64,000 bases of DNA from an uncultured virus (IMG/VR IMGVR_UViG_3300025881_001848) (lineage: Duplodnaviria; Heunggongvirae; Uroviricota; Caudoviricetes). The notes beneath the pieces are model-generated. The model was not told the origin of the DNA. It made no database searches and worked only from the letters and a program-made list of their open reading frames with translations. Positions 1,559-60,506 of the stretch are shown in pieces. Location of the stretch: the IMG/VR virus record IMGVR_UViG_3300025881_001848. One strand, given 5' to 3'. The translations under genes and the position numbers were made by a program. The first letter of the stretch is position 1. Every line of letters starts with the position of its first letter.

Positions 1559-1858
1559 GGAATGTTATGAGCACTACCGCCCCCTTATCCATCCGTGAAC
1601 GTGATTTTTTAGCGGCATGCGGATTTGATTTAACTCACGGTTTCTTTTCGGAAGATGTAGCCCTTTGGCGGCATAAAGAGCCGGAGATGTATCGCCAGTA
1701 CGTGACCTTCGGGTAACACACCTTTTACCACTATACGGAATGGCTGAACGGCCATTTTTTTGTGCGCTCGCAATAAAATAAAAATAAAAGATTGACAGCT
1801 AGTTTCATTATGATAATATTAAGACTCTTAAAACACACACACATAAAGCGAGAAGATT

Positions 1859-2146
1859 ATGTCATTATTTACCAACGTTGTTAAAGAAAATCCAGTTGCT
1901 ATTAACGCCGAAAACGCTAACTTTTTTGCATTACTTAACTTCCTAACAGAAGATTTAGTCGAACGAGATTTCTTCGCTTTCATGGATGATGATAAAATTG
2001 AATCTTTAGCTAAGCTAGTATTGCAAGAAGTAGATGCTAATTTTTTCGAGCAAGACTTCTGTACTGATACTGGCGCATCAATCACTTATGCGAATGAAGC
2101 TGAGGCAATTGAGTTCATTATCTCACTCTCATTCAAATTAGCGTAA
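1859..2146 (+). CDS. hypothetical protein, paralog of the C-terminus of 2779..3306
   Basis: promoter and CA leader; shared FFAFMDxDKxxxLAKLVxQE. Confidence 0.8.
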   Translation: MSLFTNVVKENPVAINAENANFFALLNFLTEDLVERDFFAFMDDDKIESLAKLVLQEVDANFFEQDFCTDTGASITYANEAEAIEFIISLSFKLA

Positions 2147-2220
2147 ATAAACGCTTAGCATTCGATTCAGCTCCATATAGGGGCTGAATAAACCTAAACA
2201 TTCACACAAGGAATACTGTT

Positions 2221-2616
2221 ATGTCAACATCATCGATCACGATGGTCAATCAAGCCCCTTTTATGATCAGTATGTTTCGTAATTGGATACTGGCGAGCAA
2301 GGGAACGCCGTTCATTGTGATCATAGCCAGTGAAGTGATCAGCGATGCCGATATTGAAGCGATTTCGAAAAACAACGAATTGGTGCTCAATGTCTCGCAT
2401 GAAGCCGTAAACTCGTTTGATATTTCACAGGAAGGCGATATTACCGTCGTTACCCGACTGAAAGGGCAGAGCGTGACATTTAATTTCGCATCAACCGCAT
2501 GTAAGTCAATATACTGTATGGAAAATGGTATGGGGACTATATTAATTAAGCCTAAGGCGGCGACGTCTGACAACAAAGGAGACAGTGATAAAATACCTCA
2601 AAAGAAAGCACATTAA
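2221..2616 (+). CDS. possible SspB-like (ClpXP adaptor) protein
   Basis: WILASKGTPFIVI, LVLNVSHEAV and IYCMENGMG resemble SspB motifs (W..DN..TP, IVLN.S..AV, IYARENG.G). Confidence 0.6.
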   Translation: MSTSSITMVNQAPFMISMFRNWILASKGTPFIVIIASEVISDADIEAISKNNELVLNVSHEAVNSFDISQEGDITVVTRLKGQSVTFNFASTACKSIYCMENGMGTILIKPKAATSDNKGDSDKIPQKKAH

Positions 2617-2778
2617 CACGCCGTCAAGGTCTGTAGTTAAAGACAGGACATCACTGACCTAGAATTCAAGCCCCGTAAAACGGGCTTTTCCCGCGCCTGA
2701 AATAAAAGTTTAAATGATTGACAAATACAGTCAATATGATAATGTATATCCACTCAAACACACACAAGCGAGCACTAC

Positions 2779-3306
2779 ATGCAAACAGTGAACAATATAA
2801 GCCTACGGACATTATTAATACTGACACTCAAGTCAAAACACGGCAGTACAAGAACTGAGACGTTGACGGTCAGTGTTAGCGAAAATGACTGTAAGATGCA
2901 CTACCACATTATAGAGCGCAAAGACTTTATAAATAAATTACCATTGTTCTTAACCAACAGTGATGGTGATACCTTGGATTGCGTAATAAACGAGATAAGA
3001 AGATCGTCATCAATCGATATTATTGAATATCATTTTTCCCCCGCGCTTAACAACGCCAGTAAAGTGAAAACCGCACTTGCCGAGGGTAGGAATGTAGAAA
3101 CTGCATGGGCGTACTTGGTCGATAAACAATTTTTCGCATTCATGGATAATGATAAGTTAGATGGCCTAGCTAAATTAGTTGTGCAGGAGCTGAAAACAAA
3201 TCCCGTGAGCGCTAGCAAGGGCGTCATAGGGAAGTTTACGGGCACAGATGATGCCATGGAATGTATTATTGCACGCCTCATCAGAACGAAGGTGATGGCC
3301 GCTTAA
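2779..3306 (+). CDS. hypothetical protein
   Basis: promoter 2718, CA leader, terminator near 3341. Confidence 0.8.
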   Translation: MQTVNNISLRTLLILTLKSKHGSTRTETLTVSVSENDCKMHYHIIERKDFINKLPLFLTNSDGDTLDCVINEIRRSSSIDIIEYHFSPALNNASKVKTALAEGRNVETAWAYLVDKQFFAFMDNDKLDGLAKLVVQELKTNPVSASKGVIGKFTGTDDAMECIIARLIRTKVMAA

Positions 3307-3459
3307 CCTTACTGGCAGTATTTCATTCGCTTATTAATCAAGCCCCGTCGAACGGGCTTATTTTCGCGCACCTCAAACAAAACAAACAAAATGATTGACA
3401 AATAATGTCATTATGATAATATATACCCACTGAAGAAACACACACAAAGCGAGAACCAC

Positions 3460-4617
3460 ATGACACAATTCAACGACGTAAAAACCAATAGATTTTCTAC
3501 TTTTTCAACGCTTAAAAATGACACTATGCTTGAGCCTATGTTTTTTGGTAATGGCGTTAACGTGGCTCGTTTTGACCAACAAAAGCACCCTATATTTGAG
3601 AAGTTGATTGAAAAGCAAATTTCTTTCTTCTGGCGTCCAGAGGAAGTTGATATCTCAAAGGATCGTATTGACTTTGAAAAGCTAAGCGATGCTGAAAGAC
3701 ATATTTTCACCTCAAATCTTAAGTATCAAACTTTGCTTGATTCGGTTCAAGGTCGCAGTCCTAACATTGCATTGCTACCAATTTGCTCACTGCCAGAGCT
3801 TGAAACTTGGATTGAAACTTGGTCGTTTTTCGAAACTATCCATAGTCGTTCGTATACGCATATTATTCGTAACCTATACTCTGATCCATCAACTGTATTT
3901 GGTGATATTGTAGAGAACGAGAAGATTAAAGAGCGTGCTGAGGATGTAGCGTTTTACTATGATGAATTAATCTTTGCTGTGCAATTGTATCAAACACAAG
4001 GTTTAGGCGCTCATATTGTAGACGGTGTAGAGCATGTGATTACCTTACGTGAGCTTAAAAAGAAGTTGTACCTGTGCATGAATTCTGTGAACGCACTTGA
4101 AGCTATACGTTTCTATGTTTCTTTTGCCTGTACATTTGCTTTTGCTGAGCGTGAAATGATGGAAGGTAACTCGAAAATAGTCCGCCTTATCGCTCGTGAT
4201 GAAAATATACACCTTGCGTCTACTCAACACATACTTAACTTGTGGAGAAGTGGTCAAGATGATCCAGAGATGGCTGAGATTGCCATTGAATGTAAGGATC
4301 AGGCTCGTGAGATATTTATGTCTGCGGTAAAACAGGAAAAGAATTGGGCAAAGTACTTATTCTCTAACGGTTCGATGCTTGGTTTAAATGAAGCCATCTT
4401 ATGCCAGTACGTTGAATATATTGCTAACATCCGTATGAAGGCTATAGGCTTTGATGCCCCGTTTGATATTGAAACTAACCCGTTACCTTGGATGAACAAC
4501 TATTTAAGCTCTGACGCAGTTCAGGTTGCTCCTCAGGAAGTGGAAGTAAGCTCTTATCTAACAGCTCAAATAGATGTAGAAGTAAGCTCAGATGATTTTG
4601 GTGACATGGAGTTATAA
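3460..4617 (+). CDS. nrdB: class Ia ribonucleotide reductase beta subunit
   Basis: [66 protein letters not shown]. Confidence 0.98.
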
Positions 4618-5166: not shown

Positions 5167-5230
5167 TTGACATAAAATCAAAATGATAATATACTGTTTG
5201 TACTGAAAAAGCACACACACGGAATTCAAA

Positions 5231-8516: not shown

Positions 8517-8580
8517 TTGACATAAATACTCATTATGATAATATTGCCTTACTGAAAACACACACACAAGGCATTATATT

Positions 8581-11022: not shown

Positions 11023-11205
11023 GGGGTTACCCGCAGCAGTACATTATCACCATTAAAGGGCTTAAGTGCCCTTTTTTGTGGTCGAACTATAGGGTTTATC
11101 TAAGAGAGGACTTGTAAATAATATTGTAAATTTGATTGACAAAGTGTATCAATATGATAATATTGCCCCACTGAAAAAACACACACTACTCAATCAGAGG
11201 TCTAC

Positions 11206-11987: not shown

Positions 11988-12053
11988 TCACTTGACATAA
12001 TTTTTCATTATGATAATATTTACATACTGAAAAACACACACAAGAGCACCATT

Positions 12054-13932: not shown

Positions 13933-14069
13933 CATTATCGGCAGTGCGTCGAGTGTCACATTGAAAGGGAGGTATACCTCTCTTTTTTGGCGCTCAAATT
14001 AAAATTAATGATTGACATATTATCATAATGAACTATAATGAATCATCAAATAAACGAGAGCACACACAC

Positions 14070-15269
14070 ATGACACCTATTAATTTCGCAAACATTATTA
14101 AATATAGCAACGCAGTTTTACCAGAAGTTGAGAAGCCGGTGTCCAAGATGTGGGCAATCGAATTACGTTCAAAACGAACGGATATCTTTATTGCCCTATA
14201 TGAGCGTTTACTCGAAGCAACTTCGCCTTTAGTGGTTGATTGCGCTCACGCGAATATGGAAGAGTGCCCCTTAATGAATGGTGGTGTTGCGGTGTTCTTC
14301 TTTGAGACTAAAGAGCAAGCTCAATCATTATCAACGTTGTATGATTTGTTTGAGGAGGACGCCAGAGAAAAAAGTATTCATCAGTTAGCGGGTGAGCCTA
14401 ACCCTTTACAAGTGTTAATAAGTTCTTATGAGCTATTCGGTACGCACGTTGACCGTTTGTTTGAAGTAAGTAAGATAGGTGCAGATACTGCCATGAAGCG
14501 TGCTGAGGATATTGCTAGCAATGCGACAGTGGATAGTGATTGGCATGATCGTGTTATTGGTGTGGCTAAGCGATTAAATGATGAGTCTTTAACGCTACAG
14601 TCAGAAGTCGATGAAATGATTGAGACGATTAAAGCGACTTACAGTGGTTTTGAGGATGATGCGGATTTACGTCGATTTATAGAGGTTATTGCCAATGAGA
14701 CGGTAGAAATCTATACACAGGGTAATGTGATTGAAAGCCATGCAGCTTTATACACTGATATATCATTGACCGAGCTTATTGATGTACTGGGTACACAAGA
14801 TGATAGTGACGATGCGTTAATAGCAAAGCATGATGCTAAGCAAAATAAATTATTGAACAGCAATGAGCGTGCAAGTATTGTGCGTGATAACTGGGAAATG
14901 CACAAAAAAAGCTTGAACATCATGTTATGTAAGCGTTACTGCGATGCGAAACATAAGCGTTTGTCAGCCCCTGTGTCGTTTTGTGGTTTGCATATTGGTT
15001 CGTTAATGACTGAATCATTTGGTGAGCGATTGGAGACTAAAAGTGCAGTGCGCACCATGGAAAATATTGGGCTAACAGATCTAGAATTACTCGCGAGTGC
15101 TATTGTAGCGCAACTAGGTGGATACATTGAACTTAAACGCGGTCAGAGATTACGTAACAAGCGTCATGCGTTGGCCAAAGCGTTAGTGGCTAAAGAAAGC
15201 TTTTCTAAAATTGAAGCGTATGAGCAGATGAATCGCGATCTTGAAGATGTGCTGGATATTACTGGCTAA
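14070..15269 (+). CDS. hypothetical protein
   Basis: long ORF; start revised to ATG after GAGAG-CACACACAC. Confidence 0.85.
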   Translation: MTPINFANIIKYSNAVLPEVEKPVSKMWAIELRSKRTDIFIALYERLLEATSPLVVDCAHANMEECPLMNGGVAVFFFETKEQAQSLSTLYDLFEEDAREKSIHQLAGEPNPLQVLISSYELFGTHVDRLFEVSKIGADTAMKRAEDIASNATVDSDWHDRVIGVAKRLNDESLTLQSEVDEMIETIKATYSGFEDDADLRRFIEVIANETVEIYTQGNVIESHAALYTDISLTELIDVLGTQDDSDDALIAKHDAKQNKLLNSNERASIVRDNWEMHKKSLNIMLCKRYCDAKHKRLSAPVSFCGLHIGSLMTESFGERLETKSAVRTMENIGLTDLELLASAIVAQLGGYIELKRGQRLRNKRHALAKALVAKESFSKIEAYEQMNRDLEDVLDITG

Positions 15270-15415
15270 ACCTTACGAGTTAATTCAAAATGATAATAAG
15301 GCTGTACATATTAAGTGCAGTCTTTTTCGTGCTTAAATAAAAATAAATGATTGACAAATTATCATAATAAAGTATAATTACCTCATCAAGTCGAAACACA
15401 CACAAGGCGATTATT

Positions 15416-16740: not shown

Positions 16741-17445
16741 ATGAAATTAACAAAAGTATTAGCGGCTGCGTTGCTCTTAGGTGCTTCGCTAAGCTCACAA
16801 GCAGCAGTTATTAGCGTAGATTGGAAAGAAGCTGGTGATAATGGCGCGTTTGTAGAAACGACCTCGGGCACTGAGTGGTTAAAGTTAACGCAGACTCAAG
16901 GGGTTGGGCTTAACACTGTTCAGCAGCAGCTAGGTGCCGGTGGACTCTATGAAGGCTTTAGAGTGGCAGATTCGAATGAAGTACAGTTCCTTTTTGACTA
17001 TTTCTTGGGGCAGGCAACGGGGTTAACGTACACATCAATCTCGGCGTTTGATTTTGCTGACAGCAGCACAGTCGATGGCAGAGCGTTGATGGTTGACTTG
17101 TTGGATGCTTTAGGCCGAGCGATAGTGGGTACAAATACCTTTTCAACTGGTCGGTATTTTCAAGCGGGTTCTCAATCGGTGTTATCATCAACATTCAGAG
17201 ACGATGACGCAAACGGGTTTGCTCGGCTTATTTACGACAGGGTAACATCAACAACGAATGCAAATACTCCAGGTTCTGCTCCTGGTGTATTCTTGGTGTC
17301 TGACGGCGGGAATACGTTCAGCTCAATTAACAACCCTGGGATCCTAAGTGGCATCGAAACACCATCGGTAGCCGTGAGTGAGCCACATGCGTTAGCATTG
17401 TTAGCGTTAGGTTTTGCTGGGTTAGTGCTTAGACGAAAAGCGTAA
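16741..17445 (+). CDS. PEP-CTERM-type sorted surface protein (VSEP)
   Basis: signal peptide; GTEWL; GVFLVSDGG; VSEP-TM-RRKA. Confidence 0.9.
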   Translation: MKLTKVLAAALLLGASLSSQAAVISVDWKEAGDNGAFVETTSGTEWLKLTQTQGVGLNTVQQQLGAGGLYEGFRVADSNEVQFLFDYFLGQATGLTYTSISAFDFADSSTVDGRALMVDLLDALGRAIVGTNTFSTGRYFQAGSQSVLSSTFRDDDANGFARLIYDRVTSTTNANTPGSAPGVFLVSDGGNTFSSINNPGILSGIETPSVAVSEPHALALLALGFAGLVLRRKA

Positions 17446-19186: not shown

Positions 19187-19722
19187 ATTTTATCACTCTT
19201 AATGTGTGTCGCGGCATCTCGCTTACGCTTAAGTCCTTGTTCGCCCAGTTCCTGTAAATCGAACAAGTTATCAAGCGTTGGCGTCACCCCTGTGAATTGT
19301 TCAAAAGTGGCTAATTCCATATACTGACAGTTAAACAGGACACGGCCGGTTATGAAATGAGCTTCTTTGTCAATTCGCTTCATTAACCGATAAAGGTTAG
19401 GGGCTTTATTTTTGTGTACTTTGATATCATCTTTGTACAGTTTAACCATTTTATCCCAATCGCGGATAAACGGGGCATACTGGGGGGCGTCATCAACGAT
19501 GGCCGATATATTTTTGATGGAGGGGCATGCGGCTAACATATCCATGCAGCGTTTTAGATCAGATGGATCTGATGGGGTTGAGATGTGTTTTGTCTCAATG
19601 CTGGCCATGCGAAAAGCGATACATTTTGATGATGTGCCAGTGCGGCCATTAGCAAGCCAGTTAAGTACTTCTAATCGAATAGTGTCTATATCACCATTGG
19701 TGGCGGTAGCATTATGCGTCAT
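19183..19722 (-). CDS. phage-type hypothetical protein
   Basis: WLANGRTGTSSK, PSDPSDLKRC; AAGGA RBS. Confidence 0.75.
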   Translation of the reverse strand: MTHNATATNGDIDTIRLEVLNWLANGRTGTSSKCIAFRMASIETKHISTPSDPSDLKRCMDMLAACPSIKNISAIVDDAPQYAPFIRDWDKMVKLYKDDIKVHKNKAPNLYRLMKRIDKEAHFITGRVLFNCQYMELATFEQFTGVTPTLDNLFDLQELGEQGLKRKRDAATHIKSDKI

Positions 19723-19912
19723 GCGTAATTCCTTTTGTTATTGCGTCCGTTGTAAACCCAGGCGAAGTGATTGCTTTTACCCGTGTGTTGAGATGATAGC
19801 AGTTTTTATTTTTTTACCCTCAACCACGCTATTTAGCGGCTGTGTATTGTGGGTTTTATTTTTTATTGTGATAAATTTACGCATACAATATAGATTAATA
19901 TGGACATTACTT

Positions 19913-20629
19913 ATGAAATTAACAAATATTTTAGCTGCCGCCGCATTGCTTAGCGCTTCGTTAGGCTCTCAAGCAGCCATTATTAGTGTTGACTGGAAAG
20001 TTGCGGGTGACAACCGAGCGTTTATAGAAACCACCTCGGGCACTGAATGGTTGAATGTGAATGAGACACAAGGACTCAGTGTTAACACGGTTAGCGGTGA
20101 ATTTGGTGCTAATGGTTTATACGAAGGTTTTAGGGTAGCAACGGCAAGTGAGATGCAGCCCTTGTTTGATTTATTTTTGGGGAGCGCACCAAATTTAGTT
20201 AGTGAGCCGAATCCGGATTACACCAACATCCTCTCGTATACAAATGAGGGGATGGCAATAATGGCTGATATTCGTGGTGTTATTGGGGAGACCAACGCTA
20301 ATGTAAATAGCGCTGTAACTGTCGGCATGTATTTTGATGACGCTGGCACTGGTTCATCATCAGTCAGGATGACGCATTTTATTGAATCCTTTTCATCAGA
20401 TGCTGGTCGGCTTATTTACGATAGGACGTTTTCCTCTTTAGATAATGGTTATACCGGATCGTCTGTTGGCGTTTTTCTTATCTCAGATGGCGGCAACACA
20501 TTTAGCACGATTAATAACCCAGGGTTATTAACGGGCGGTAATACATCGACAACAGAAGTGAGTGAGCCACATGCGTTAGCGCTGCTTGCATTTGGTTTCG
20601 CCGGATTAGTACTTAGACGTAAGGCGTAA
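19913..20629 (+). CDS. PEP-CTERM-type sorted surface protein (VSEP), close paralog of 16741
   Basis: start revised to ATG 19913 (MKLTNILAAA); near-identical tail to 16741. Confidence 0.9.
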   Translation: MKLTNILAAAALLSASLGSQAAIISVDWKVAGDNRAFIETTSGTEWLNVNETQGLSVNTVSGEFGANGLYEGFRVATASEMQPLFDLFLGSAPNLVSEPNPDYTNILSYTNEGMAIMADIRGVIGETNANVNSAVTVGMYFDDAGTGSSSVRMTHFIESFSSDAGRLIYDRTFSSLDNGYTGSSVGVFLISDGGNTFSTINNPGLLTGGNTSTTEVSEPHALALLAFGFAGLVLRRKA

Positions 20630-20637
20630 CAATAATA

Positions 20638-21345
20638 GTGAGAAAATATATAGGTAAACTATTGGTAACGGGCGCGTTATTAATGACCGCATCGATAGGG
20701 GCGAATGCTGCTATTATCAGCGCCGACTTTGAGACGGGTAATGATGGTAACGCTTTTATCGATACACGTGCTGGGTATGAGTGGATTAAGTTGACGCAGA
20801 CCGCCGGCATGGCTATTTCGACAGCATCCCAAAGAACGGAAGAGGGTCAGCGCTTTGAAGGCTTTAGAGTGGCCTCTGAAGTGGAAATGGGGGAGTTGTT
20901 CGCATCTATTGATGAGTTGTTAACGTATGAGCGCTCTGGGGGGATCCTAAGCGGCAGAAGTAATTTACAAGCTGACTATGATGCCATGCTAAGTGTCATA
21001 ACAACAATCGGTATATTGCAAAGTGGCTCAACCGCAAAACATGCCCCTGGGCTTTATCAGGGGACTAATGGGGTTATCTACCGGTCACTAATGTCGGTAG
21101 GGACGGCGAGCAATAGAAGTAATTCATTAAGCACTCAGTACACTGGCAACTATTTCGAATACCAAGGGCTAAATGGTTTTGGTATTTTCCTTGTGTCAGA
21201 TGGCTACAATACGTTGTCATCCCAACTCGCCCCCACATTATTGAACAACAATCCGCTATACGCGGTTACCGAGGTTTCAGCACCCGCGTCTTTTGCGTTG
21301 CTGGGCGTAGGTTTGTTGGGGTTATTGGCAAGACGCCGAGACTAA
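20638..21345 (+). CDS. PEP-CTERM-type sorted surface protein (VSAP)
   Basis: signal peptide; GYEWI; GIFLVSDG; VSAP-TM-RRRD. Confidence 0.85.
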   Translation: MRKYIGKLLVTGALLMTASIGANAAIISADFETGNDGNAFIDTRAGYEWIKLTQTAGMAISTASQRTEEGQRFEGFRVASEVEMGELFASIDELLTYERSGGILSGRSNLQADYDAMLSVITTIGILQSGSTAKHAPGLYQGTNGVIYRSLMSVGTASNRSNSLSTQYTGNYFEYQGLNGFGIFLVSDGYNTLSSQLAPTLLNNNPLYAVTEVSAPASFALLGVGLLGLLARRRD

Positions 21346-25054: not shown

Positions 25055-25184
25055 TATGGCGGGACCTGGCGGCGTGATGTCGCCAGTGGCTATTTTAATG
25101 ATAGTGACAAAAAATGATTGACATTAATCGTCATTATGATAATATAACCCCAGTGAAGCAAAACCCTATTTGAAGAGCACACAC

Positions 25185-26036
25185 ATGACACTTATTGCAA
25201 AAGAAGCAGCATTTAATGGATCGATCATTACCTTGGCACGCAGTTTGTCGCTTAGTGATGTTGTGGTGAAAGAATACAGCACGGATACTAATCATTATTT
25301 GGAGAACGTTATGATGCGTCTAGGTCTATCAAAAAAAAATATTCAAGAGCTTGTTAACGATACCGCTGTTGCGTATCGAGATAACAATGTAAGCTTTAAG
25401 CTAAATAAGCTACGTGATTCGATTGCAATGGCTATATCAGGAAGAAAGTGGTCATCTTGGCTTTCTGATTGGGATGAAAATACTTACCGCTATTACTCAA
25501 TCAAAGAGAGTGCGCTTGATACTCTGCCAAATAAATATTTCTTTTTTGAGGAATCTAGTCGATTTTCTTCTGACACCGACAACGCATTAAAAGAAATGAT
25601 CATTGTTCACGTAAGAACTGCTGATTTCTCCGACGATGAAAGTGAGATTGAAGTGAAAGCAATTTCTAACGACAAAACGCAGATATTCTATGTTCAACTG
25701 ACAGACGGTGAGCATCGCGGGGATCTCGGTTGCTGGTTGCTTGCAGAAGGTGACGATGGCGACATTAATTCTGACGATTACCTAGATTTTGATTTGCCGT
25801 TGATAATAGATGTAGCAGAGCGATTTTATGGAAGCATTACAGACGAATTAGCGACTGAATATCAAATTGACGGTGAATATGCGTATCTCTTAGTCGGTGA
25901 AAGTGAAGTCAAGATTGTAACCAAAAATTCAAGATTTATTAATAGTGCAACATCATCTTATCAGCGTGAATTTAGTGAGCCTTTATATACTTTCGAAACA
26001 AAAGATGAAGCTTTTAGCTTTTTGAGACAGTTATAA
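25185..26036 (+). CDS. hypothetical protein
   Basis: promoter 25118; GAGCACACAC-ATG; RDSIAMAISGRKWSSW motif. Confidence 0.8.
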   Translation: MTLIAKEAAFNGSIITLARSLSLSDVVVKEYSTDTNHYLENVMMRLGLSKKNIQELVNDTAVAYRDNNVSFKLNKLRDSIAMAISGRKWSSWLSDWDENTYRYYSIKESALDTLPNKYFFFEESSRFSSDTDNALKEMIIVHVRTADFSDDESEIEVKAISNDKTQIFYVQLTDGEHRGDLGCWLLAEGDDGDINSDDYLDFDLPLIIDVAERFYGSITDELATEYQIDGEYAYLLVGESEVKIVTKNSRFINSATSSYQREFSEPLYTFETKDEAFSFLRQL

Positions 26037-28764: not shown

Positions 28765-28861
28765 AAAAGATTGACAAATTATCAAAATAGCGTATAGTTA
28801 TCCCACTCCCAACACATACCAGTGAAGGGAGTACCCTATTCACACACATTAAGGCGTTATT

Positions 28862-29194: not shown

Positions 29195-29300
29195 GCCCCT
29201 ATTTCCATGTTCATTATGATAATTAATGATTGACAAATTATCATAATGAAGTATACTTATCATAATGAAGTATAATTATCCTACACACACAGGAGCACCA

Positions 29301-30461: not shown

Positions 30462-30533
30462 AAATGATTGACAAAATAATTCAATATGATATTATGTGTG
30501 CAGTTAAAAAGTTCACACACACAAGGTCATATT

Positions 30534-31602: not shown

Positions 31603-31733
31603 CAACGAACACTTATATCATTCGTATTTTACGGTAAAGTGAAATAATATTGTATGTCAAAAATAAATGATTGACATTAAGAGTCATTATGATAATATTA
31701 CCTCACTGAAACAAAACACACACAAAAGGCAGA

Positions 31734-32222
31734 ATGAACATGGCTTCAAAAGGCGTAAATAAGTGCATATTAGTTGGTAATTTGGGTCAAGATCCAGAAG
31801 TAAGAACCATGCCCAACGGCACCGCAGTGGCAAATTTAAGTATCGCGACCAGTGAGTCGTGGAAAGATCAACAAGGTGTCAAGCAAGAGCGCACTGAGTG
31901 GCACAGGTTGACGATGTATAAGGGTTTAGCGGAGATTGCAGGTAAATTCCTTACTAAGGGGTCGCAGATTTACGTTGAAGGCAAACTGCAAACGCGTAAA
32001 TGGCAAAATCAGCAAGGTCAAGATCAATATACGACTGAAATTGTTGTGAGCGACATGCAAATGTTGGGCGGTGGCAAGCAAAACCAAAATAATCAGAATG
32101 GCGGCCAGAACCAAGGTGGTGGCGGTTATCAACAAAATAATCAGCAACCGCAGAACCAAGGTGGTCAGCAAAACAATCAACAGCCTTCAAATAATGATTT
32201 TAACGATTTCCCCGACAATTAA
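31734..32222 (+). CDS. ssb: single-stranded DNA-binding protein
   Basis: [37 protein letters not shown] linker; tail DFNDFPDN differs from canonical DDDIPF. Confidence 0.97.
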
Positions 32223-32365
32223 AGGGGATCGTCAAGTATAGCGAAGAGGTCACCCTAAGGTGGCCTTTTTTGTGGGTGTCTATATGCAAATAAACGAAAA
32301 AAATGATTGACAAAATAACGCATTATGATAATATAGACTCTCTTAAACACACACGGATAATAATC

Positions 32366-33454: not shown

Positions 33455-33590
33455 CAAAAATTCACATGGATAAGGTCGCTAAAAAGCGGCCTTTTTTATT
33501 GCATTAAATAATAAAAATGATTGACAATAATGTTCATTATGATAATATTACCTTACTGAAACGCAACACACACACCAAAGGAAAACGTTT

Positions 33591-34007: not shown

Positions 34008-34053
34008 TTAATAGGGGGGCTTAAGCCTCCCTTTTCAAGAGGAATACACACAC

Positions 34054-34212
34054 ATGAGAGTCACTATTCAAGTAAACGAGGAAGGCGAGAGTATTATGAT
34101 CTTCCCAAAATCAGCCCCCTTAGGGTTAATTGAGCAAATCCGCCGTGTTACTAATGTCCAGCGTGAATTCATTGGGAAATTGGGCAACTTGGTATTCGTA
34201 TTAGCAGATTAG
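34054..34212 (+). CDS. 52-aa hypothetical protein (not in ORF track)
   Basis: AGAGGAATACACACAC-ATG; MRVTIQVNEEGES... Confidence 0.7.
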   Translation: MRVTIQVNEEGESIMIFPKSAPLGLIEQIRRVTNVQREFIGKLGNLVFVLAD

Positions 34213-35499: not shown

Positions 35500-36129
35500 A
35501 TGACCCAGAACAATCAGTACGAACAATCAGAGACCCAGCGCATTATTGATTTAATGCAGCGTATTGAGAGCGACGGGTTTAAGGGCGGCATAGTGATGTC
35601 GGCCGATGGTCAGAAGTCCAAGAATTTATCTATCTCGGTAGCCCAGGCTATCAAGATCCAAGCGATACTTGTAGAAGGTGACATCCCTTTACGCCAGGAG
35701 GCAGCATTTACCCTTACGTTGGTGAGTGAGTTGTCATCGGGCATGATGCTAGATTTAGGTCGTGATGAGCACGTAGATCCACATGATAAGAATGTGAGGC
35801 TAAGAGATGCTTATGTAACAGTTGAGGCTGTTACGCGAACGAATACAGGTATCATTGTGGCTTTTGCAGATTTTGAAAATGTACGATTGCCGGAGGATCA
35901 CCAAGTGAAGGTGGTTGCGTTGGTACCAGAAAAAGCAGGCGACAAGGTGTATGCGTATGCGGTTAGTGATGAGTCTGGAGAAACTGTATTAGAAACCGAC
36001 GACATCGAGGCAGCACGAGAATGTGTAGATGATATTAATGATGAGCTTTCTGAAGACGATAGAATTACCGCCCGAGCTGCATTAATGGAACGAAATAGTG
36101 ATGGCACTGGATACACCCGCCTTGACTAA
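35500..36129 (+). CDS. hypothetical protein directly upstream of the hairpin array
   Basis: promoter 35437; ACACACAAGG leader; start revised. Confidence 0.8.
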   Translation: MTQNNQYEQSETQRIIDLMQRIESDGFKGGIVMSADGQKSKNLSISVAQAIKIQAILVEGDIPLRQEAAFTLTLVSELSSGMMLDLGRDEHVDPHDKNVRLRDAYVTVEAVTRTNTGIIVAFADFENVRLPEDHQVKVVALVPEKAGDKVYAYAVSDESGETVLETDDIEAARECVDDINDELSEDDRITARAALMERNSDGTGYTRLD

Positions 36130-36141
36130 TGTGAAGACTTC

Positions 36142-36454
36142 GACTTGCTAGACTGTGTGTGGTGTAGCAAGTCACCCTACTACGGGTAATAAGACTGTGT
36201 GTGGTTTTATTACCCACCCCTACGAGTGACTGAACTGTGTGTGGTTTTGTCACTCATCCTTTAGATTGGCGAGCTGTGTGTGGCACGCCAATCACTTTCT
36301 TCGGGCAACTGACTGTGTGTGGTTAAGTTGCCCACCCTTTTCGATTGGTGCGCTGTGTGTGGCTCACCAATCCATTTCTTCGGGTGACAATGCTGTGTGT
36401 GGCGTTGTTACCCAACCTCTTCGAGATGGCAGACTGTGTGTGGTTTGCCATCTC
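36142..36454 (+). ncRNA. array of eight hairpins with invariant UGUGUGUG loops
   Basis: loops at 36154, 36196, 36236, 36275, 36314, 36354, 36394, 36435; variable complementary stems; G-U pairs favour + strand. Confidence 0.85.
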
Positions 36455-36586
36455 AACCTCTTTGCAATAAAACCCCTTGATACAACATCCCTTAAGACCC
36501 ATTAAACCTCAATAAAATAACTAAATGATTGACAAAATAATTCACCATGATAATATGTATTCATTGAAATAACCCAAGAGAGCACC

Positions 36587-37901: not shown

Positions 37902-37907
37902 TAAGAC

Positions 37908-38038: not shown

Positions 38039-38104
38039 AGAAGCTTCTGTTTATCCCTGTGCTACTATCATTTTAAACCCATTTATTACGACCAGAGAAG
38101 CCCT

Positions 38105-38560: not shown

Positions 38561-38618
38561 CAAATGTTCAAAATGATAATATAATGTTTGTATTGAATCA
38601 AACCACGGAAACACACAC

Positions 38619-39050
38619 ATGACACCTATAATCAAACCTATAATCAAACCTATATTTAAAGCCATATTAGACGAAGCAATTGCCACCGGCGATCAAGCTA
38701 ACATTGACGCGATGAAAGTGGCTATTGAGCAAGAAATATTCTTTGTTGAAGTTATTGTTACCGGCATAGGCCAGTATAGCATGGGTTCGACCTCTGTTGA
38801 TGTTGAGGGTAAAGATACGCCTATTCCTTGTGTGTATGCAACTCAAGCGGAAGTATTAGCCGAAATTAAAGATGAAACCCAGCGTTACGAATCAGAAGTG
38901 CAAGGCGGCGAACGTGATGTAGAAGATGAATACGAAGGTCAGTTAATGGCCATGAAGTGGGATGGCGGTACGCAAGTGTCATTCTTTGATGTTGATGATT
39001 TGGATGCGAAACTTGATGAAGGCGCGTGGCGCTGGCATGCGGGTCACTAG
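38619..39050 (+). CDS. acidic hypothetical protein
   Basis: promoter 38557; GGAAACACACAC-ATG. Confidence 0.8.
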   Translation: MTPIIKPIIKPIFKAILDEAIATGDQANIDAMKVAIEQEIFFVEVIVTGIGQYSMGSTSVDVEGKDTPIPCVYATQAEVLAEIKDETQRYESEVQGGERDVEDEYEGQLMAMKWDGGTQVSFFDVDDLDAKLDEGAWRWHAGH

Positions 39051-39911: not shown

Positions 39912-40118
39912 AGCTTTCTGGTTTTAAAGTGAGCTGATGGTACCTGACGCTTGAATTATCAACATCCTATATAAAAGTCGCCTTATAGCGGCTTTTTTTT
40001 TGTGTTGGAACTGGATAAGTAGTGGATTGTGATAGGTTTAGCTGGAAGATTTATGTGGCTTTTTGAAAGGCGATAAATCAATTTGATCATTAGTAATGAC
40101 TGACAAGGATGTAAGGGT

Positions 40119-40886
40119 ATGAAGAGTATGATGAGAAAGGTGGCAGTTACCGCTGTATTACTGTTGACCATGGGGTCGGCGTCAGCTGAGCTTATTAAAG
40201 TTGATTTGAGCGAGACGGGATCGCTAGGTGTGACACTTGATTCTGACACAGGACTTGAGTGGTTAGGGCTTCGAAGCACGCTTGGTATGTCAATGAATGA
40301 GGCCTTAACGGCCTTTTCAGGATGGCGATTAGCTACTGAATTTGAAGTTAACACGGTTGTTGATAAAGTGAGGCAAGGAGAGCGTTACAGTAGTTATTTT
40401 GGCAGTGCGTTTCAGCAAGATATCTCGCTATATAATTCCAGTAACTCAGGAAATAGTTACTTTGTGCAGTATGCAGGCAAGCTTTTTAATACGTTTCAAG
40501 GCGGTAACACAGCTCCTTATCAAAGTGGTGTTAGCATGCGCGTAGGGTCGGGTCTGCATCTTAGTGACACCACGGGTGGATTGTTGCTGACAGGCGGCAA
40601 TAGCTTCTCGGATTCAAACGGTACTTATATTCGCTATAACGATATTACGTCGTCGAATTTGTCGGATGTGAAAGATTATAAAGGTGCACAAATGTCAGTG
40701 TTTTTAGTGTCAGATGGTGGTCAGTCATTTGCTTCATTGCAAGACCCAACACTGAATATTAACAATCCTAACGCACCAATTAACAATGCAACTGCGGTAA
40801 GTGAGCCTGGGGCGTCAGCAATTTTAGGTTTAGGACTGATGGGCTTGGCGGTTCGCCGCAAGCGAATGAATGAGTTTAATGGATAA
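40119..40886 (+). CDS. PEP-CTERM-type sorted surface protein (VSEP)
   Basis: signal peptide; GLEWL; VFLVSDGG; VSEP-TM-RRKR. Confidence 0.9.
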   Translation: MKSMMRKVAVTAVLLLTMGSASAELIKVDLSETGSLGVTLDSDTGLEWLGLRSTLGMSMNEALTAFSGWRLATEFEVNTVVDKVRQGERYSSYFGSAFQQDISLYNSSNSGNSYFVQYAGKLFNTFQGGNTAPYQSGVSMRVGSGLHLSDTTGGLLLTGGNSFSDSNGTYIRYNDITSSNLSDVKDYKGAQMSVFLVSDGGQSFASLQDPTLNINNPNAPINNATAVSEPGASAILGLGLMGLAVRRKRMNEFNG

Positions 40887-40896
40887 AAAGGGTAGT

Positions 40897-41703
40897 ATGA
40901 ACATGAAAAGTTTGATGAAAAAGGTAATTGTAGCGACGGCGCTGTTATTAACAGTAAACGCAGCATCCGCTGGGCTTATCCGAGTTGATTTAAGCAGCGC
41001 GGGTTCTCAGGGTGTAACGCTTGATACTGACACTGGTATAGAGTGGTTAGGGTTAAGCAATACTTTAGGTATGTCAATGAATGAGGCCTTAACGGCTTTC
41101 TCTGGCTGGCGCGTAGCAACACAGTTTGAAGTCGGCACGGTGATTAATAAAGTTCTTGCCGGTGAAGCTTATGAGAATTTCTTTGGCAGTGCGCTTCAAA
41201 GTGGTTATGGTCAAATTGACTACGGAAGCTCGCGTAACAGTTATTATGTGCAGTTTACTAATAAGATGCACAGTGTATTTCAAGGTGGAAACACGGCACC
41301 GGCATCTGATGGGCGTTTTTTGAGGGTGGCTGATGGCTTGCACATTAATGACGTTACAGGCGGTCTAATCCGTTCAGGCACCACTATTGCGTCAAACCGG
41401 TATTACCAGCGAATTTATTTTAACCGTGGCTTAGGCATAAGTTTGCCTGATATTATGGATTATAAAAGGGCAGATGCTTCGGTGTTTTTAGTGTCAGACG
41501 GTGGCCGGTCATTTGCTTCATTGCAAGATCCAACTATCAATGCTAACAACGCCAATGCGCCAATCAATAACGCGACTGCCGTGAGCGAGCCTGGGGCGTT
41601 AGCGCTCTTAGGATTAGGCCTAATGGGTTTAGCCGTTAGCCGTAAGCGTAAAAATGGTTTAGCGGTTCGTCGTAAGCGTCACAATGGCTTTTCCGGTGGC
41701 TAA
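40897..41703 (+). CDS. PEP-CTERM-type sorted surface protein, tandem paralog of 40119
   Basis: same motifs; duplicated basic tail; start revised. Confidence 0.9.
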   Translation: MNMKSLMKKVIVATALLLTVNAASAGLIRVDLSSAGSQGVTLDTDTGIEWLGLSNTLGMSMNEALTAFSGWRVATQFEVGTVINKVLAGEAYENFFGSALQSGYGQIDYGSSRNSYYVQFTNKMHSVFQGGNTAPASDGRFLRVADGLHINDVTGGLIRSGTTIASNRYYQRIYFNRGLGISLPDIMDYKRADASVFLVSDGGRSFASLQDPTINANNANAPINNATAVSEPGALALLGLGLMGLAVSRKRKNGLAVRRKRHNGFSGG

Positions 41704-45381: not shown

Positions 45382-45557
45382 CGGTTTGACCTTGTGTGTG
45401 CAAGTGTATTTAACTTACCAATATAGTATATTAAATACGATATAATGTCAATCATTTATTGTAAACAAAGCAAATACATCACGGCCGATAAGGCGGTCGT
45501 GATGGTGGCAAGGTTGTGTAATATCCTTTAAGGCGCACTCACCCTGCTTTTTTAGGC

Positions 45558-46290: not shown

Positions 46291-46358
46291 AAGTTACCCT
46301 AGTGTGTGTTTCATTATGATAATGATACCATGCACACTAAAATTGTCAATCATTTATG

Positions 46359-47040: not shown

Positions 47041-47182
47041 TTTCTGCGTCCTTTGTGTGTGTTTCTTAACTGTCCCTATTATCCGTTAAACAGCCTTATT
47101 TGTCAATCATAAATATTTATTAACCCACAAAAAAGGCTACACAATAGTAGCCCTTTTACGGTGGTTGGTTAGTGCATAACCC

Positions 47183-49615: not shown

Positions 49616-49795
49616 TTAAATATTATCTCACTACTACATAGGCGATTTACTTGACAAATATATGTACTAAAACCCACCCTCCTGTAAGGCGCAGCCGAGT
49701 GTGAGCATTTTACCTTTAGTATCTGGCAATAAATGATTGACAAAATGCACTATGATGGTATGATTAACTCCTCCACACACACAAGGTAAAAAAAT

Positions 49796-50610: not shown

Positions 50611-50678
50611 TGATTGACAAATTATCATAATGAAGTATACTGTCTATATTGAATTAACACACACGTAGGCAGTTTTTT

Positions 50679-55499: not shown

Positions 55500-55632
55500 T
55501 ATAACCTATTAGCCCAGGTCTCTTGGCTTGGGTTTTCACGCATAAGTCCGTGCTTTATGTAGATAAAAGATTGACAAAACACCTCATTATGATAATATAG
55601 TCGTGTATTCAAACACACACATAGGATCACAC

Positions 55633-57229: not shown

Positions 57230-57304
57230 GTGCTAATATAAAAAAGGATTGACAAAATTGTTCATTATGATACTATTGTGTAACTAAAAACACACACGCA
57301 AGGT

Positions 57305-58224: not shown

Positions 58225-58635
58225 TTATGCGATGACGATGTTTTTGAATCCACCCAGCACATCAATGTGCTTTTTAATATCATAGGTATCGACCAGTTCG
58301 GCACCTACTTCAATCTCCGTTAGGGCGTAGACGTAAAGTTTACGCCCTTTTAGTATGCTATATACATTGGCAACACTGTTGTGATTGATGTAGCTGTACT
58401 TTGTTCTAAATGGGATGGCGGCGATATGCGTTTCATCTATTTTGTACTTTTCCATGAAATACACCAGGTCATGATCATCACTTGCCAACAGTGCTTTATA
58501 CTCCTGGGTAGTCAATACCTGTCCTTCTAATATACATAGCAAAGTGTCTTTGGCGATAAGGTGTGTGGCAAACAGTCCGTGCCCGTGCAGCGGTGAGGGT
58601 TTAACGGTGGTGTGCTTGATGTTATCGATGGCCAT
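58225..58635 (-). CDS. SET-domain protein (putative lysine methyltransferase)
   Basis: SPLHGHGLFA, YINHN..AN, ALTEIEVGAELVDTY. Confidence 0.85.
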   Translation of the reverse strand: MAIDNIKHTTVKPSPLHGHGLFATHLIAKDTLLCILEGQVLTTQEYKALLASDDHDLVYFMEKYKIDETHIAAIPFRTKYSYINHNSVANVYSILKGRKLYVYALTEIEVGAELVDTYDIKKHIDVLGGFKNIVIA

Positions 58636-59069
58636 GATTGTACCTTCCTTGGTGAGTACATAGCATAGTGCATTTTAGTGATTATTCCGCATGGTGGGTA
58701 AATGGGTATTAGCTTTATTTTTTGCCTTGTAATCTCGCCGCGACGGGGCTTACTGCGTCTTTAACAAGGTGTGCTTTGGATGGGTGTGTGCCCGTTTGGA
58801 TGGCGCTAAAGATCTTTGGGCAGCATGATAGTTTTTTGACTTCTCCACGCAGTTGCAGTGTGGTATCCATGGTAATGGCTATTTGGTGTTGAGCTGAGTA
58901 TTTCTGTATGCGAGAGGAGATGTACAGCGCTGGGTCTGCTATTGGATTGGCACCATCGTGGTTTAACCGTCCGTATGCGAGTACGTAGCCCTCCTTTTCA
59001 TGTTTAATTAGCCAGCAGTCAATCAGTGTTTTAATAGTGCTATTCGTTATGCAGGTGAATGTTTAGTGA

Positions 59070-59276
59070 CTATATCAGATGGTATTCCCATCTGCCTCTG
59101 ATTTTTACGCCCGAGATAATACCGTCTTGGCATAGTTCATCCAAATAGTGACTTATTTTATTGTAAGGTTTACGAGGCTTGAGTGAAAAACCCGTGTCTA
59201 TTTTTGCTTGTTTGTCCGATGGTCTGATTGATCCATGTTTGCGAATATACGCTAAAATTCGATTTCGTCTTCTCAT
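59070..59276 (-). CDS. small basic winged-helix-like protein
   Basis: ILAYIRKHG...HYLDELCQDGII...GRWEY. Confidence 0.6.
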   Translation of the reverse strand: MRRRNRILAYIRKHGSIRPSDKQAKIDTGFSLKPRKPYNKISHYLDELCQDGIISGVKIRGRWEYHLI

Positions 59277-59378
59277 TATGAATGTCCTTGCTGCACGATT
59301 GATTGTGCTAAGTTGATAGTCTTAGTATGCCTAATTATCGTTGTAAAATCAAGCTATAAATGCAAAAATGATTGACAA

Positions 59379-59395
59379 ATTATCAAAATGATAAT
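59379..59395. promoter_or_regulatory. perfect copy of the spacer dyad ATTATCA-AAA-TGATAAT (candidate operator)
   Basis: 7-3-7 inverted repeat between -35 and -10. Confidence 0.6.
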
Positions 59396-59429
59396 ATACT
59401 TTACTTATTGTCACTAAGGAGTATTCGTT

Positions 59430-59597
59430 ATGTCTGTTTGGGTAGTAGCATGTGGTGGAACAGAACCCGTTATGACCGTTAAAGGTCGTCGTATTCAGTA
59501 TATGTGGAATAGGCAAACGCGTGAACATGCCTATTACGATTTAGGGCGTGATCTATTCTTGGATAATGCCGATTTGCAGTCGTTAGGAATGACATAG
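59430..59597 (+). CDS. 55-aa hypothetical protein (not in ORF track)
   Basis: promoter 59372; AAGGAG RBS; MSVWVVACGGTEP... Confidence 0.75.
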   Translation: MSVWVVACGGTEPVMTVKGRRIQYMWNRQTREHAYYDLGRDLFLDNADLQSLGMT

Positions 59598-60506
59598 CGA
59601 GTAAAAGCATTACGTTGTCAAGTGGACACACCACCTTCTGTGCCGTCGCCTAACAAATATAATTCCCCTTTGCGTGGAAAGCTTTCACTTTGTGCTATAT
59701 TTCTAATAACGCAGTAGTGTTGTATTGTGTTGCATTTGTGTATGCATGTTCACATAACATGCTTCCATATCGGGCAACCCTGGTAATTCTTGGTTGTTAT
59801 GCCTAAGCTTCAGACGTTTAGGCTTGGCGTGTAGCAGAGTGGTGGCCAAGATACAAATAACTCTCTGGATTGAAAGTCTTCTCCCATTTGTTAAGGATAA
59901 TAGGTTTTTGTTGCTCGGCTCACCGCTTTATTGAACGGTCTGACTGGGGATGAAAAGCGGGAAGGGTTTTGGATATTGTGTCTGTGCCGGTGTCATTTCC
60001 GGTGACAAATATTTACTGCTTCTTATTATCTGATAGCGCCTCCTTAGGGGCAGTGATCACTTGCAGGTGATTAGTGTTTAGATGATTCAGTTGACGGCGG
60101 GAAAGACCGCGATACCTTTACTTAATTAACATGGAGTGTTGATATGTTGCTAAACATTATTATCCCCGTTATATTTATGCCCCTTGCAGTATTGACTCTT
60201 ATTGGTGTCTTTGCGACGTTATATGTGACATACAAACTGTTTTTTGCTCCGCAGCCGGCCGAAAGAATTCGTCAGTTTCACTAAAAAGACTAACTATAGA
60301 GTTAAACTATGTCCACTACAATTACCATACCCGCCATATATATTCCTATCGCGTTTTTTACTGCCATTGGCATTGTTGTTTCGTTAAAGGTGTCTTATCA
60401 ATATTTTCTGAGCTGTTTGCCAGACAAAGAATAAGTCAAGCAAAAAAGATTGACAACAAAGTTCATTTTGATAAACTATAGGTAGATTTTATTAATGAGC
60501 ACACAC

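Follow-up and report, generated by a model that had tools for sequence, protein, structure and literature searches.

Why does the same short alternating run of C and A, (A)CACACACA, stand beside so many ribosome-binding sites (RBSs) in this uncultured virus, and what connects it with an array of hairpins in the same DNA whose loops match it on the opposite strand? The window (the whole stretch analysed, 64,000 nt) contains 34 copies of CACACACA, against a mean of 2.51 (sd 1.89, largest 8) in 100 dinucleotide shuffles, none of which reaches 34. With overlaps merged, the array excluded and alternating runs of at least 8 nt counted, these resolve into 26 distinct leader runs, 23 on the + strand and 3 on the - strand; the remaining 8 matches are the array loops (36139-36460), on the - strand. 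All 26 leader runs are in sense orientation with respect to the next gene and end 0-20 nt 5' of its ATG, and none lies in a coding region. A sequence-only reading of this DNA had placed the motif next to the RBS of more than 25 genes, always pointing in the sense direction, and had expected it to be enriched in leaders over coding sequence and background: the counts bear this out, and all 21 of the motif coordinates it listed were recovered within 1-2 nt. The leader runs are as follows.

1833..1843, + strand: CA run, leader of gene 1859
2758..2766, + strand: CA run, leader of gene 2779
3438..3446, + strand: CA run, leader of the RNR small subunit gene (3460)
5212..5220, + strand: CA run, leader of gene 5231
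8558..8568, + strand: CA run, leader of gene 8581
11179..11186, + strand: CA run, leader of gene 11206
12034..12042, + strand: CA run, leader of gene 12054
14061..14070, + strand: CA run between SD (GAGAG) and ATG 14070
15396..15404, + strand: CA run, leader of gene 15416
25178..25185, + strand: CA run abutting ATG 25185
28841..28848, + strand: CA run in a long leader (63 nt), still 13 nt from ATG 28862
29283..29291, + strand: CA run, leader of gene 29301
30514..30523, + strand: CA run, leader of gene 30534; the ortholog in the relative L077 keeps the run
31716..31724, + strand: CA run, SSB leader
32347..32354, + strand: CA run, leader of gene 32366; the L077 ortholog keeps the run
33566..33575, + strand: CA run, leader of gene 33591
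34046..34054, + strand: CA run abutting ATG, without early promoter; a terminator-like hairpin precedes
38611..38619, + strand: CA run abutting ATG 38619
49774..49783, + strand: CA run, leader of gene 49796
50657..50664, + strand: CA run, leader of gene 50679
55613..55621, + strand: CA run, leader of gene 55633
57290..57297, + strand: CA run, leader of gene 57305
60500..60507, + strand: CA run abutting ATG
47054..47062, - strand: CA run, leader of the gene with ATG 47040
46302..46309, - strand: CA run, leader of gene 46290
45393..45400, - strand: CA run, leader of gene 45381

Both of the placements described earlier are found: the run lies either directly 5' of a short Shine-Dalgarno (SD) sequence, CACACACA-AAGGC-N5-8-ATG, or between SD and start codon, GAGAG-CACACACAC-ATG.

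An early promoter lies upstream of 25 of the 26 long runs. The intergenic repeat unit is a strong sigma-70 promoter, AAATGATTGACA-N16-(TG)nTAATAT, with 42 copies by a strict rule; a CA run of at least 6 nt follows 28 of these and one of at least 8 nt follows 21, compared with 3.4% and 1.5%, respectively, of random 65-nt windows. A third to a half of the early leaders are without a run. Among ORFs of at least 70 aa that have no promoter, 6 carry the motif and 67 do not, while promoter-proximal ORFs are evenly divided (15 and 15); the motif is specific to promoter-proximal cistrons as a class. A representative promoter-leader module is that of the SSB gene:

31669..31736, + strand: GATTGACA, N16, TAATAT, ACTGAA, ACACACACA, AAAGGC, ATG

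Integron gene cassettes were considered as an explanation of this layout and rejected: what recurs between genes is a promoter (TTGACA-N16-TAATAT) and not attC, and a scan of 82 ORFs turned up no integrase. What had been called cassette genes are instead promoter-led early genes of a phage-like element, and the window looks like the early region of a marine phage that is novel and probably huge. Pfam matches are absent for 71 of the 82 proteins scanned in it. Many small ORFan genes, each behind a conserved early promoter module in a hyperplastic region, are also a feature of T4-like phages, as described in the portions of PMC4122927 drawn on here. The promoter part has about 42-50 copies in the present case, with a terminator hairpin upstream of the promoter in some (e.g., 34010); the T4-like PeSL unit combines terminator stem-loop and promoter, whereas the conserved module here is promoter plus CA leader.

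PeSL-type promoter cassettes are mobile (PMC4122927), and the promoter-plus-leader modules of the window are highly alike over about 40-70 sites, as they would be if the CA run were a functionless part of a module spread by recombination or duplication. We regard such hitch-hiking as extremely improbable: sequence has diverged among sites and orthologs both from the -10 element to the run and from the run to the ATG, but the run itself has been kept, and in two different arrangements relative to the SD. It is conserved as well in diverged marine relatives, at 21 of 33 promoters, although protein identity is only 38-46% and these relatives share no nucleotide HSP of at least 150 nt with the window.

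Within the module, the run is tied to the RBS rather than to the promoter: it lies anywhere between 9 and 42 nt past the -10 element (mostly 12-18 nt) but is always within 20 nt of the ATG, and the motif is also present at a few RBSs without an early promoter (34046, 24139, 2203).

What might a CA run do there? In the predicted mRNAs it is highly accessible (single-stranded), with a mean computed opening cost of 0.65 kcal/mol, as opposed to 2.1 in 117 control windows taken from those RNAs. It is C/A-rich, contains ACA triplets (3.31 in the 25 nt upstream for CA leaders, versus 0.77 and 0.72 in the other two groups), and keeps no fixed spacing from the SD, at or upstream of which it lies. According to the parts of PMC3879156 considered here, SD-adjacent ACA motifs raise translation with no strict spacing and are silenced by the G/U-rich seed of GcvB; similarly, excerpts of PMC5934652 describe 5' tails of (CA)4-8 as standby sites giving strong translation enhancement. 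Thus the earlier statement that C/A-rich RBS elements are enhancers, and targets of a G/U-rich sRNA seed, is documented. By analogy, the run most likely belongs with known CA/ACA translational enhancers or ribosome standby sites. The Salmonella yifK, dppA and gltI leaders and the synthetic (CA)n tails used in E. coli are likewise C/A-only, unstructured and near or upstream of the SD, and the likeness extends to flexible spacing and several ACA triplets (PMC3879156; PMC5934652). The run in the window differs from them: it is a perfect dinucleotide repeat, it is used across a whole regulon (of more than 40 early leaders of the phage, about half to two thirds have it), it is limited to the first cistron after the promoter, and its enhancer activity is presumed. 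An enhancer that compensates for a weak SD is unsupported, since no significant difference in SD strength was seen between groups (medians of -3.4 kcal/mol for CA leaders and -4.1 and -4.3 for the others; p = 0.16 and 0.24).

The other part of the question concerns the array and the gene before it.

35500..36129, + strand: early gene for a 209-aa protein with no family match, directly upstream of the array
36139..36460, + strand (favoured): array of eight tandem hairpins

The array begins about 10 nt past the stop codon of the 209-aa gene. That gene is served by an early promoter of its own at 35435, and its leader contains CACACA. In two relatives, L077 and L071, the gene and the array occur in synteny, and the protein is 46% and 38% identical, respectively. 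Array periods are 39-42 nt, not multiples of 3. Stems of 10-13 bp vary around an unchanging 10-nt loop, CUGUGUGUGG, and the linkers are rich in pyrimidines (CACCCUUUUCG). Stem pairing holds in 89.4% of cells versus 66.1% when shuffled, with 0 of 500 shuffles reaching the observed value, and 10 of 13 stem pairs have changed on both sides around the constant loop. Wobbles in the stems comprise 19 G.U and one internal A.C; the + strand folds more stably than the - strand in each of three genomes (-151.5 vs -126.2, -92.0 vs -68.1 and -55.4 vs -39.1 kcal/mol), and promoter-like sites around the array are on the + strand only. A search for RNA runs that contain the region found none. A covariance model search of 168,767 bases found such hairpins in arrays only. 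In the 64 kb window no Rfam family reached its gathering score, and around the array there were three chance-level hits only (E above 2).

Because of the stabler + fold, the G.U wobbles, the stem covariation with an invariant loop and the early gene just 5', the array is best read as a putative + strand RNA. Its loops, UGUGUGUG, would then be antisense to the leader motif instead of copying it. The sequence-only reading had proposed that the motif matches the loop of this array (its 36142 array): the relationship is real, and it is one of antisense complement, not of match or mimic. CsrB/RsmZ-type sponge RNAs carry loops that copy an mRNA motif, GGA, and so titrate a protein. The array is built as they are, from hairpins in tandem whose stems drift while a single apical loop motif is conserved, with single-stranded stretches as linkers, but its loops complement the leader motif on the favoured strand, and GGA is absent. 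Type III toxin-antitoxin (ToxI-like) arrays consist of near-identical tandem repeats upstream of a toxin endoribonuclease gene; this identity was rejected, as the units here have a mean column identity of 68% and drifting stems, and the array is downstream of a gene without a family match.

A duplex site reads alike on both strands, and would therefore explain the complementarity if (CA)4/(TG)4 were an operator at which a DNA-binding protein, shortly after each early promoter, acts as roadblock or repressor, with the array as a cluster of eight such sites, e.g., an origin, partition or packaging site. The promoters upstream of nearly all long runs, most of them 12-18 nt past the -10 element, would suit such a site. 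The inconstant -10 distance beside a bounded ATG distance, the promoter-less RBSs with the motif and the uniform sense orientation of the leader runs all argue against it, and the compensatory stem changes and 19:1 preponderance of G.T over A.C point to a single-stranded + strand molecule; we consider a DNA-level site very unlikely.

If both motif and loop act in RNA, do they act on each other? Only two 8-mers are strongly over-represented in the window, and they are exact reverse complements of each other. The loop-leader complementarity is exact, but confined to the 8-nt repeat core, the flanks being not systematically complementary; loop and motif are both dinucleotide repeats of a single type, and a chance match between them is less surprising than one between arbitrary 8-mers. 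Every relative keeps both the leader motif and the array loop, and motif-loop co-variation is accordingly absent. Predicted energies favor pairing: opening a loop would cost 1.7-1.8 kcal/mol, an 8-bp loop-leader duplex is worth -10.4 kcal/mol, and the net energy over 28 leaders averages -10.1 kcal/mol (range -13.4 to -6.6), duplex energies that leave out the strain of a full 8-bp helix in an 8-10 nt loop. In MFE folds the loop shrinks, by C-G and U.G pairs, to a GUGUGU hexaloop (a GUGU tetraloop in L077).

The best explanation, which we hold tentatively and at somewhat less than an even chance, is that the CA run is both an enhancer and a handle for a phage-encoded multivalent antisense RNA, with pairing suggested by the sequences. 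Each early transcription unit would begin with a host sigma-70 promoter close to consensus and continue, from a putative start site, into a leader of some 30 nt with (A)CACACACA at the RBS. As an unstructured enhancer, where the 30S subunit stands by or S1 anchors, the run would act on the cistron that comes first in every early mRNA; it would at the same time be a common handle for regulating the whole early class. The eight-hairpin RNA would be co-transcribed as the 3' part of an early mRNA, and its eight loops could pair with the leader motif, masking enhancer and RBS; as the structured RNA accumulated, it would shut down or time early protein synthesis, repression being the presumed direction.

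This arrangement shares with GcvB the logic of a post-transcriptional regulon with many targets, in which a G/U-rich single-stranded element is complementary to CA-rich sequence at or upstream of many RBSs (PMC3879156, in the parts cited), as the CUGUGUGUGG loops are to the leader motif. The parallel drawn earlier with GcvB holds as analogy and not as membership: the window contains no GcvB gene or other Rfam family, and the array would be an analogue, not a homologue. Unlike GcvB, with its one linear seed, the candidate regulator is phage-encoded and in a 3' UTR, has eight hairpin-loop seeds, and would target the phage's own early genes.

Another possibility is that the CA run functions in cis only, as an enhancer or standby site for 5'-proximal cistrons, and that the array has a separate function, whether as a platform for protein binding, as a stabiliser of the mRNA or as structure in the 3' UTR, its complementarity being a low-complexity coincidence. 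All of the cis features (enrichment, placement, promoter link, accessibility) are consistent with this, experiments in E. coli and Salmonella supply a direct precedent in the cited parts of PMC3879156 and PMC5934652, the part-closed GUGU(GU) loops predicted are typical of protein-recognition hairpins, and loop and leader flanks are non-complementary. Coincidence would nonetheless have to account for the two sole over-represented 8-mers being exact reverse complements, with the array copy held in invariant loops while stems drift, for the persistence of the complementary pattern in relatives at about 40% protein identity, and for loops that open at a cost of just ~1.7 kcal/mol. Such an unrelated array seems rather unlikely, if a serious contender.

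A protein could also be the agent. T4 RegB, an early product, inactivates early mRNAs via a motif in their RBS (PMC3014915, in the portions available), and the MazF recognition sequence is ACA (PMC3879156): CACACACA might be the site of a phage or host RNA-binding protein or endoribonuclease that inactivates or activates early mRNAs, for instance a MazF-type toxin that cuts at ACA or a nuclease resembling RegB, with the array acting indirectly by covering sites. The preponderance of window proteins outside known families leaves room for one, but an RNA-binding or nuclease domain was found in none of the 82 ORFs scanned, and the array does not display the CA motif on its favoured + strand, so that it cannot be a simple decoy; a protein handle is quite improbable. 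The proposed antisense RNA would itself resemble RegB as an early phage product hitting a motif common to early RBS regions and so ending the early phase (PMC3014915). It would differ in its effector, a candidate RNA instead of a protein nuclease, and in its target: RegB acts on the SD (GGAG), and the CA run is next to the SD.

What would this mean for the phage? Possibly, though we put it short of probable, a giant marine phage times its early phase with 3' UTR hairpin loops that kiss the CACACACA beside the RBS, silencing or destabilising a whole class at once: dozens of early mRNAs, and perhaps hundreds genome-wide. Such a device would do with RNA alone what T4 RegB does with a protein, and would resemble a GcvB that is encoded by a virus and has several seeds. 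The promoter-leader module is, besides, an expression element both compact and portable. Should the cis part hold, the CA run is a natural, regulon-wide CA-repeat enhancer, conserved across a diverged lineage of uncultured marine phages; such enhancers are so far known from a few enterobacterial genes and synthetic constructs. Should the trans part hold, the array is a new viral off-switch for a temporal gene class, in the form of a multivalent antisense RNA whose hairpin loops are aimed at a shared enhancer.

The leader motif CACACACA, an alternating CA repeat beside the ribosome-binding site (RBS) of many early genes, matches the window 34 times, against a mean of 2.51 (largest 8) in 100 dinucleotide-preserving shuffles, none of which reaches 34; the enrichment predicted by the sequence-only reading is thus borne out, the background falling short of the observed count. 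When all alternating runs are listed with their context, there are 26 distinct CA runs of at least 8 nt outside the hairpin array at 36139-36460 (23 on the + strand, three on the -), and the remaining eight matches to CACACACA lie on the - strand within the array. Every one of the 26 is in sense orientation to the next gene and ends 0-20 nt 5' of the ATG, and all 21 coordinates for which that reading had claimed an RBS-proximal, sense-directed motif are among them. Two arrangements occur: the run is either directly 5' of a short Shine-Dalgarno (SD) sequence, as CACACACA-AAGGC-N5-8-ATG, or 3' of an SD-like GAGAG or GAAGAG, before the ATG (e.g., at 14061, 25178, 38611, and 60500).

The genes concerned had been described as cassette genes, a term that does not survive closer inspection: the repeat upstream of them is a sigma-70 promoter and no integrase was found among the ORFs scanned, and for these two reasons an integron reading is rejected. 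The promoter unit is near consensus, with an A-rich upstream part, AAATGATTGACA, about 16 nt, and (TG)nTAATAT, after which there usually come ACTGAA, the CA run, a weak SD, and the ATG. ACTGAA is probably the transcription start region. An ACTGAA or ATTGAA box is conserved 6-8 nt after most -10 hexamers, before the CA run (e.g., 31705-31710); as a start, it would probably provide the early mRNAs with a shared 5' end. Under a strict rule, requiring exact GATTGACA and a -10-like hexamer, there are 42 promoters; in the next 65 nt or so, 28 of them have a CA run of at least 6 nt and 21 have one of at least 8 nt, compared with 3.4% and 1.5% of 20,000 random 65-nt windows of the same sequence. A looser rule yields 50, of which 45 have an ORF; (CA)3 or more is present in 26 of these 45 and (CA)4 or more in 15.

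The position of the CA run follows the RBS more closely than the promoter: it lies 9-42 nt (sd 6.9) from the -10 element and 0-20 nt (sd 4.7) from the ATG, and in long leaders it mostly remains close to the ATG: 13 nt away in the 63-nt leader of promoter 28769, 1 nt away in the 39-nt leader of promoter 25116. It is also present at a few RBSs without an early promoter (34046, 24139, 2203). The run marks the first cistron after a promoter: among 103 ORFs of at least 70 aa, promoter-proximal ones are divided 15 with and 15 without a CA run, and promoter-less ones 6 with and 67 without, the promoter flag in this count having overlooked some variant promoters, such as that at 12054. Folding predictions for the mRNAs make the run unusually accessible, with a mean opening cost over 28 leaders of 0.65 kcal/mol vs. 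2.1 in 117 control windows of the same RNAs. SD strength does not differ significantly between CA leaders and others (medians -3.4, -4.1, and -4.3 kcal/mol; p = 0.16 and 0.24), leaving unsupported the idea that the run offsets a weak SD.

Relatives come from one metagenome scan with the promoter-plus-motif pattern, which returned 16 loci; three (L065, L072, and L074), each with a single match and deviant G+C, were put aside as probable chance matches. The other 13 represent about seven distinct genomes with the same promoter followed by CACACA(CA) leaders, and among their 33 non-redundant strict promoters a CA run of at least 6 nt follows 21 and one of at least 8 nt follows 13. One locus, L077, shares gene order with window 27800-36343, the nucleotide identity being 65-75%; between the window and the other relatives no HSP reaches 150 nt. 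In orthologous leaders the CA run is kept and the flanking leader sequence has changed. That the run is a passenger without function, carried along by a mobile promoter module of the PeSL kind (PMC4122927), is very unlikely, since it is conserved amid diverged flanks. Megablast of 28000-40000 against phages gave no match, and no cultured phage resembles it at the DNA level; tblastn of three window ORFs against phages gave 0, 0, and 2 records, and NrdA only generic matches, at 71% identity or less. Scans of IMG/VR found nothing with the exact array pattern, 10 loci with a relaxed one (all G-rich low-complexity repeats), 25 unrelated single matches to the promoter pattern, 37 loci with SSB relatives (none with an early promoter), and no relatives of the 221-aa form of the array-adjacent protein or of alignment A2; a scan of a species-genome collection gave two chance matches in gut MAGs, and by these scans neither collection contains a relative.

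Several further features of the early promoters were seen. Those at 23677, 23914, 27821, and 39117 have no ORF start within about 130 nt and may drive small RNAs or long structured leaders. Gene 29301 is preceded by two -10 elements, the spacer and -10 portion of its early promoter being duplicated in tandem at 29236-29280 (19-nt unit, 2.4 copies). In some promoters GTGTG(T) stands just after the -10, both in the window (30496-30502, 27851-27857, 57282-57287) and in relatives (L077 at about 6037, L064 at about 8265, L076 at about 310), and the one before gene 30534 is retained by its ortholog in L077; should transcription include this stretch, it could base-pair in cis with the CA run in its own leader. 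A second over-represented motif, TGATARGTTW (7 vs. 0.68 expected), lies about 35-45 nt upstream of start codons, at genes without an early promoter or CA run, several of them encoding PEP-CTERM-tailed proteins; it is a candidate for the promoter of a further temporal class.

Occurrences of TGATARGTTW
10207, 16696, 22870, 26829, 40030; + strand
44381; - strand
3150

The array itself follows directly on an early gene.

Array and adjacent gene
35500-36129; + strand; array-adjacent early gene (209-aa protein), directly upstream of the array
36139-36460; + strand; hairpin array, eight tandem units with a period of 39-42 nt, not multiples of three

Its stems vary between units yet stay complementary: 89.4% of cells are paired, vs. 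66.1% in shuffles (0 of 500 reach this) and only 32-51% when the partner is slid, and 10 of 13 pairs have changes on both sides. In the loop, ten columns, CTGTGTGTGG, are invariant across units. A covariance model of the unit has 14 matches in 168,767 bases, all within arrays: seven in the window, four in L077, and three in L071. In these two relatives a hairpin array starts directly after a homolog of the 209-aa protein (46% and 38% identity, respectively), on the same strand, and ends incomplete at the contig edge; the loops read CUGUGUGUGG, UUGUGUGUGG, UUGUGUGG, or UUGUGUAUGG, with linkers like CACCCUUUACG. Both motifs, that of the leader and that of the loop, have been conserved across great divergence, and there is therefore no co-variation between them to exploit.

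The + strand is the best reading of the functional strand of the array, and we infer that it is expressed. Summed unit folding energies are -141.2 (+) vs. -113.6 (-), whole-array folds -151.5 vs. -126.2 kcal/mol, and those of the L077 and L071 arrays -92.0 vs. -68.1 and -55.4 vs. -39.1 kcal/mol. Stem wobbles in fifteen hairpins from three genomes, one truncated unit left out, are 19 G.T vs. 9 A.C, and of the nine A.C eight fall outside the stem, at the outermost position counted, and one is internal. The array lacks a promoter of its own, its start lying about 10 nt beyond the stop codon of early gene 35500-36129, and promoter-like sites within 35300-37000 are on the + strand only. A CsrB-like decoy on the - strand is disfavored by the better + folds, the excess of G.T over internal A.C, and the + strand-only promoter-like sites. 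A duplex-DNA operator, with the array as a cluster of sites, is a distinctly unlikely explanation given the variable promoter distance of the CA run, the stem covariation, and the G.U asymmetry. With the + strand functional, the RNA loops would read CUGUGUGUGG and so be exactly complementary to the leader motif. The sequence-only reading had the leader motif matching the loop of the array; the sequences are indeed related, but on + strand RNA the loops are antisense to it. The pyrimidine-rich linkers between hairpins, CACCCUUUUCG, CAACCUCUUCG, and CACCCUUUACG (window 36177-36190 and others, L077 9134-9147), resemble the anti-Shine-Dalgarno tail of 16S rRNA, and are therefore complementary to the AAGG or GAAGAG SD-like parts of leaders. 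Pairing of one leader with linker and loop at the same time was set aside as sterically unlikely, with a 10-13 bp stem between them.

Against 5.8 billion proteins the 209-aa protein matches itself alone, its AlphaFold model is unusable (pLDDT 44.2), and an ESM Atlas search gave a best score of 0.77 and no lead. It is on record on a 564,925 bp contig; by that measure the element may be a genome in excess of 0.5 Mb. PHROG matches were found in 7 of 82 ORFs, a tRNA search of the window found none, and Pfam matches are few.

Pfam matches (11 of 82 ORFs of 95 aa or more)
Both class Ia ribonucleotide reductase (RNR) subunits
SSB
58225-58635; - strand; SET-domain protein (E = 9.5e-11), phage-like context
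DnaJ-type zinc finger, below the curated cut-off
16741-17445, 19412-20629, 20638-21345, 22912-23622, 40119-40886, 40870-41703; six PEP-CTERM tail proteins, one just under the Pfam cut-off

Six C-termini with PEP-CTERM sorting motifs are unusual for a phage-like region, and hint at a host with exosortase. Dense early promoters before small ORFans, together with RNR and SSB, would suit a very large phage, with the window as its early or hyperplastic region; since the window contains no virion gene, we infer this and go no further.

By analogy with known systems, the CA run quite likely acts on translation initiation. By its sequence it counts as a candidate CA/ACA translational enhancer, a class defined by experiment, with putative activity: PMC3879156 describes ACA triplets adjoining the SD of yifK and dppA that stimulate initiation, without strict spacing, and that the G/U-rich seed of GcvB silences, and protein S1 is the suspected anchor in PMC5934652. 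Regulation in trans by the array RNA, through leader pairing, is possible rather than probable: the RNA would present eight seeds to CA leaders, pairing within -1 to -25 would cover either the enhancer or the start site, and the array, because it would be part of the early transcript and highly structured, could accumulate and close the early phase. A functional precedent is T4 RegB (PMC3014915), an early protein whose cuts fall in the SD of early mRNAs. Computed loop opening is 1.7-1.8 kcal/mol and the 8-bp CA:UG duplex -10.4 kcal/mol; the net energy including leader opening (mean -10.1, range -13.4 to -6.6 kcal/mol) falls in these models, which leave loop geometry out of account, in the range of working sRNA seeds. 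MFE folds shrink the loop to GUGUGU or GUGU via C-G and U.G pairs, and the flanks of loop and leader are not complementary. That the run is an enhancer only, the array being an unrelated protein-binding or stabilizing element, is somewhat unlikely, and carries the most weight among the rivals. Next comes a handle for a protein or nuclease, RegB-like or MazF-like, which seems improbable. The duplex-DNA operator and then the passenger rank below it.

In architecture the array is like CsrB/RsmZ, but it lacks GGA and its loops are complementary, not identical, to the mRNA motif. It shares the seed logic of GcvB but is not a member, no Rfam family being found in the window or around the array, so that the GcvB link drawn earlier stays an analogy. 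Searches of open-access full text turned up no account of a comparable motif-and-array pair in a phage. If the antisense function is real, a multivalent hairpin-loop design directed against the virus's own early regulon would be new.
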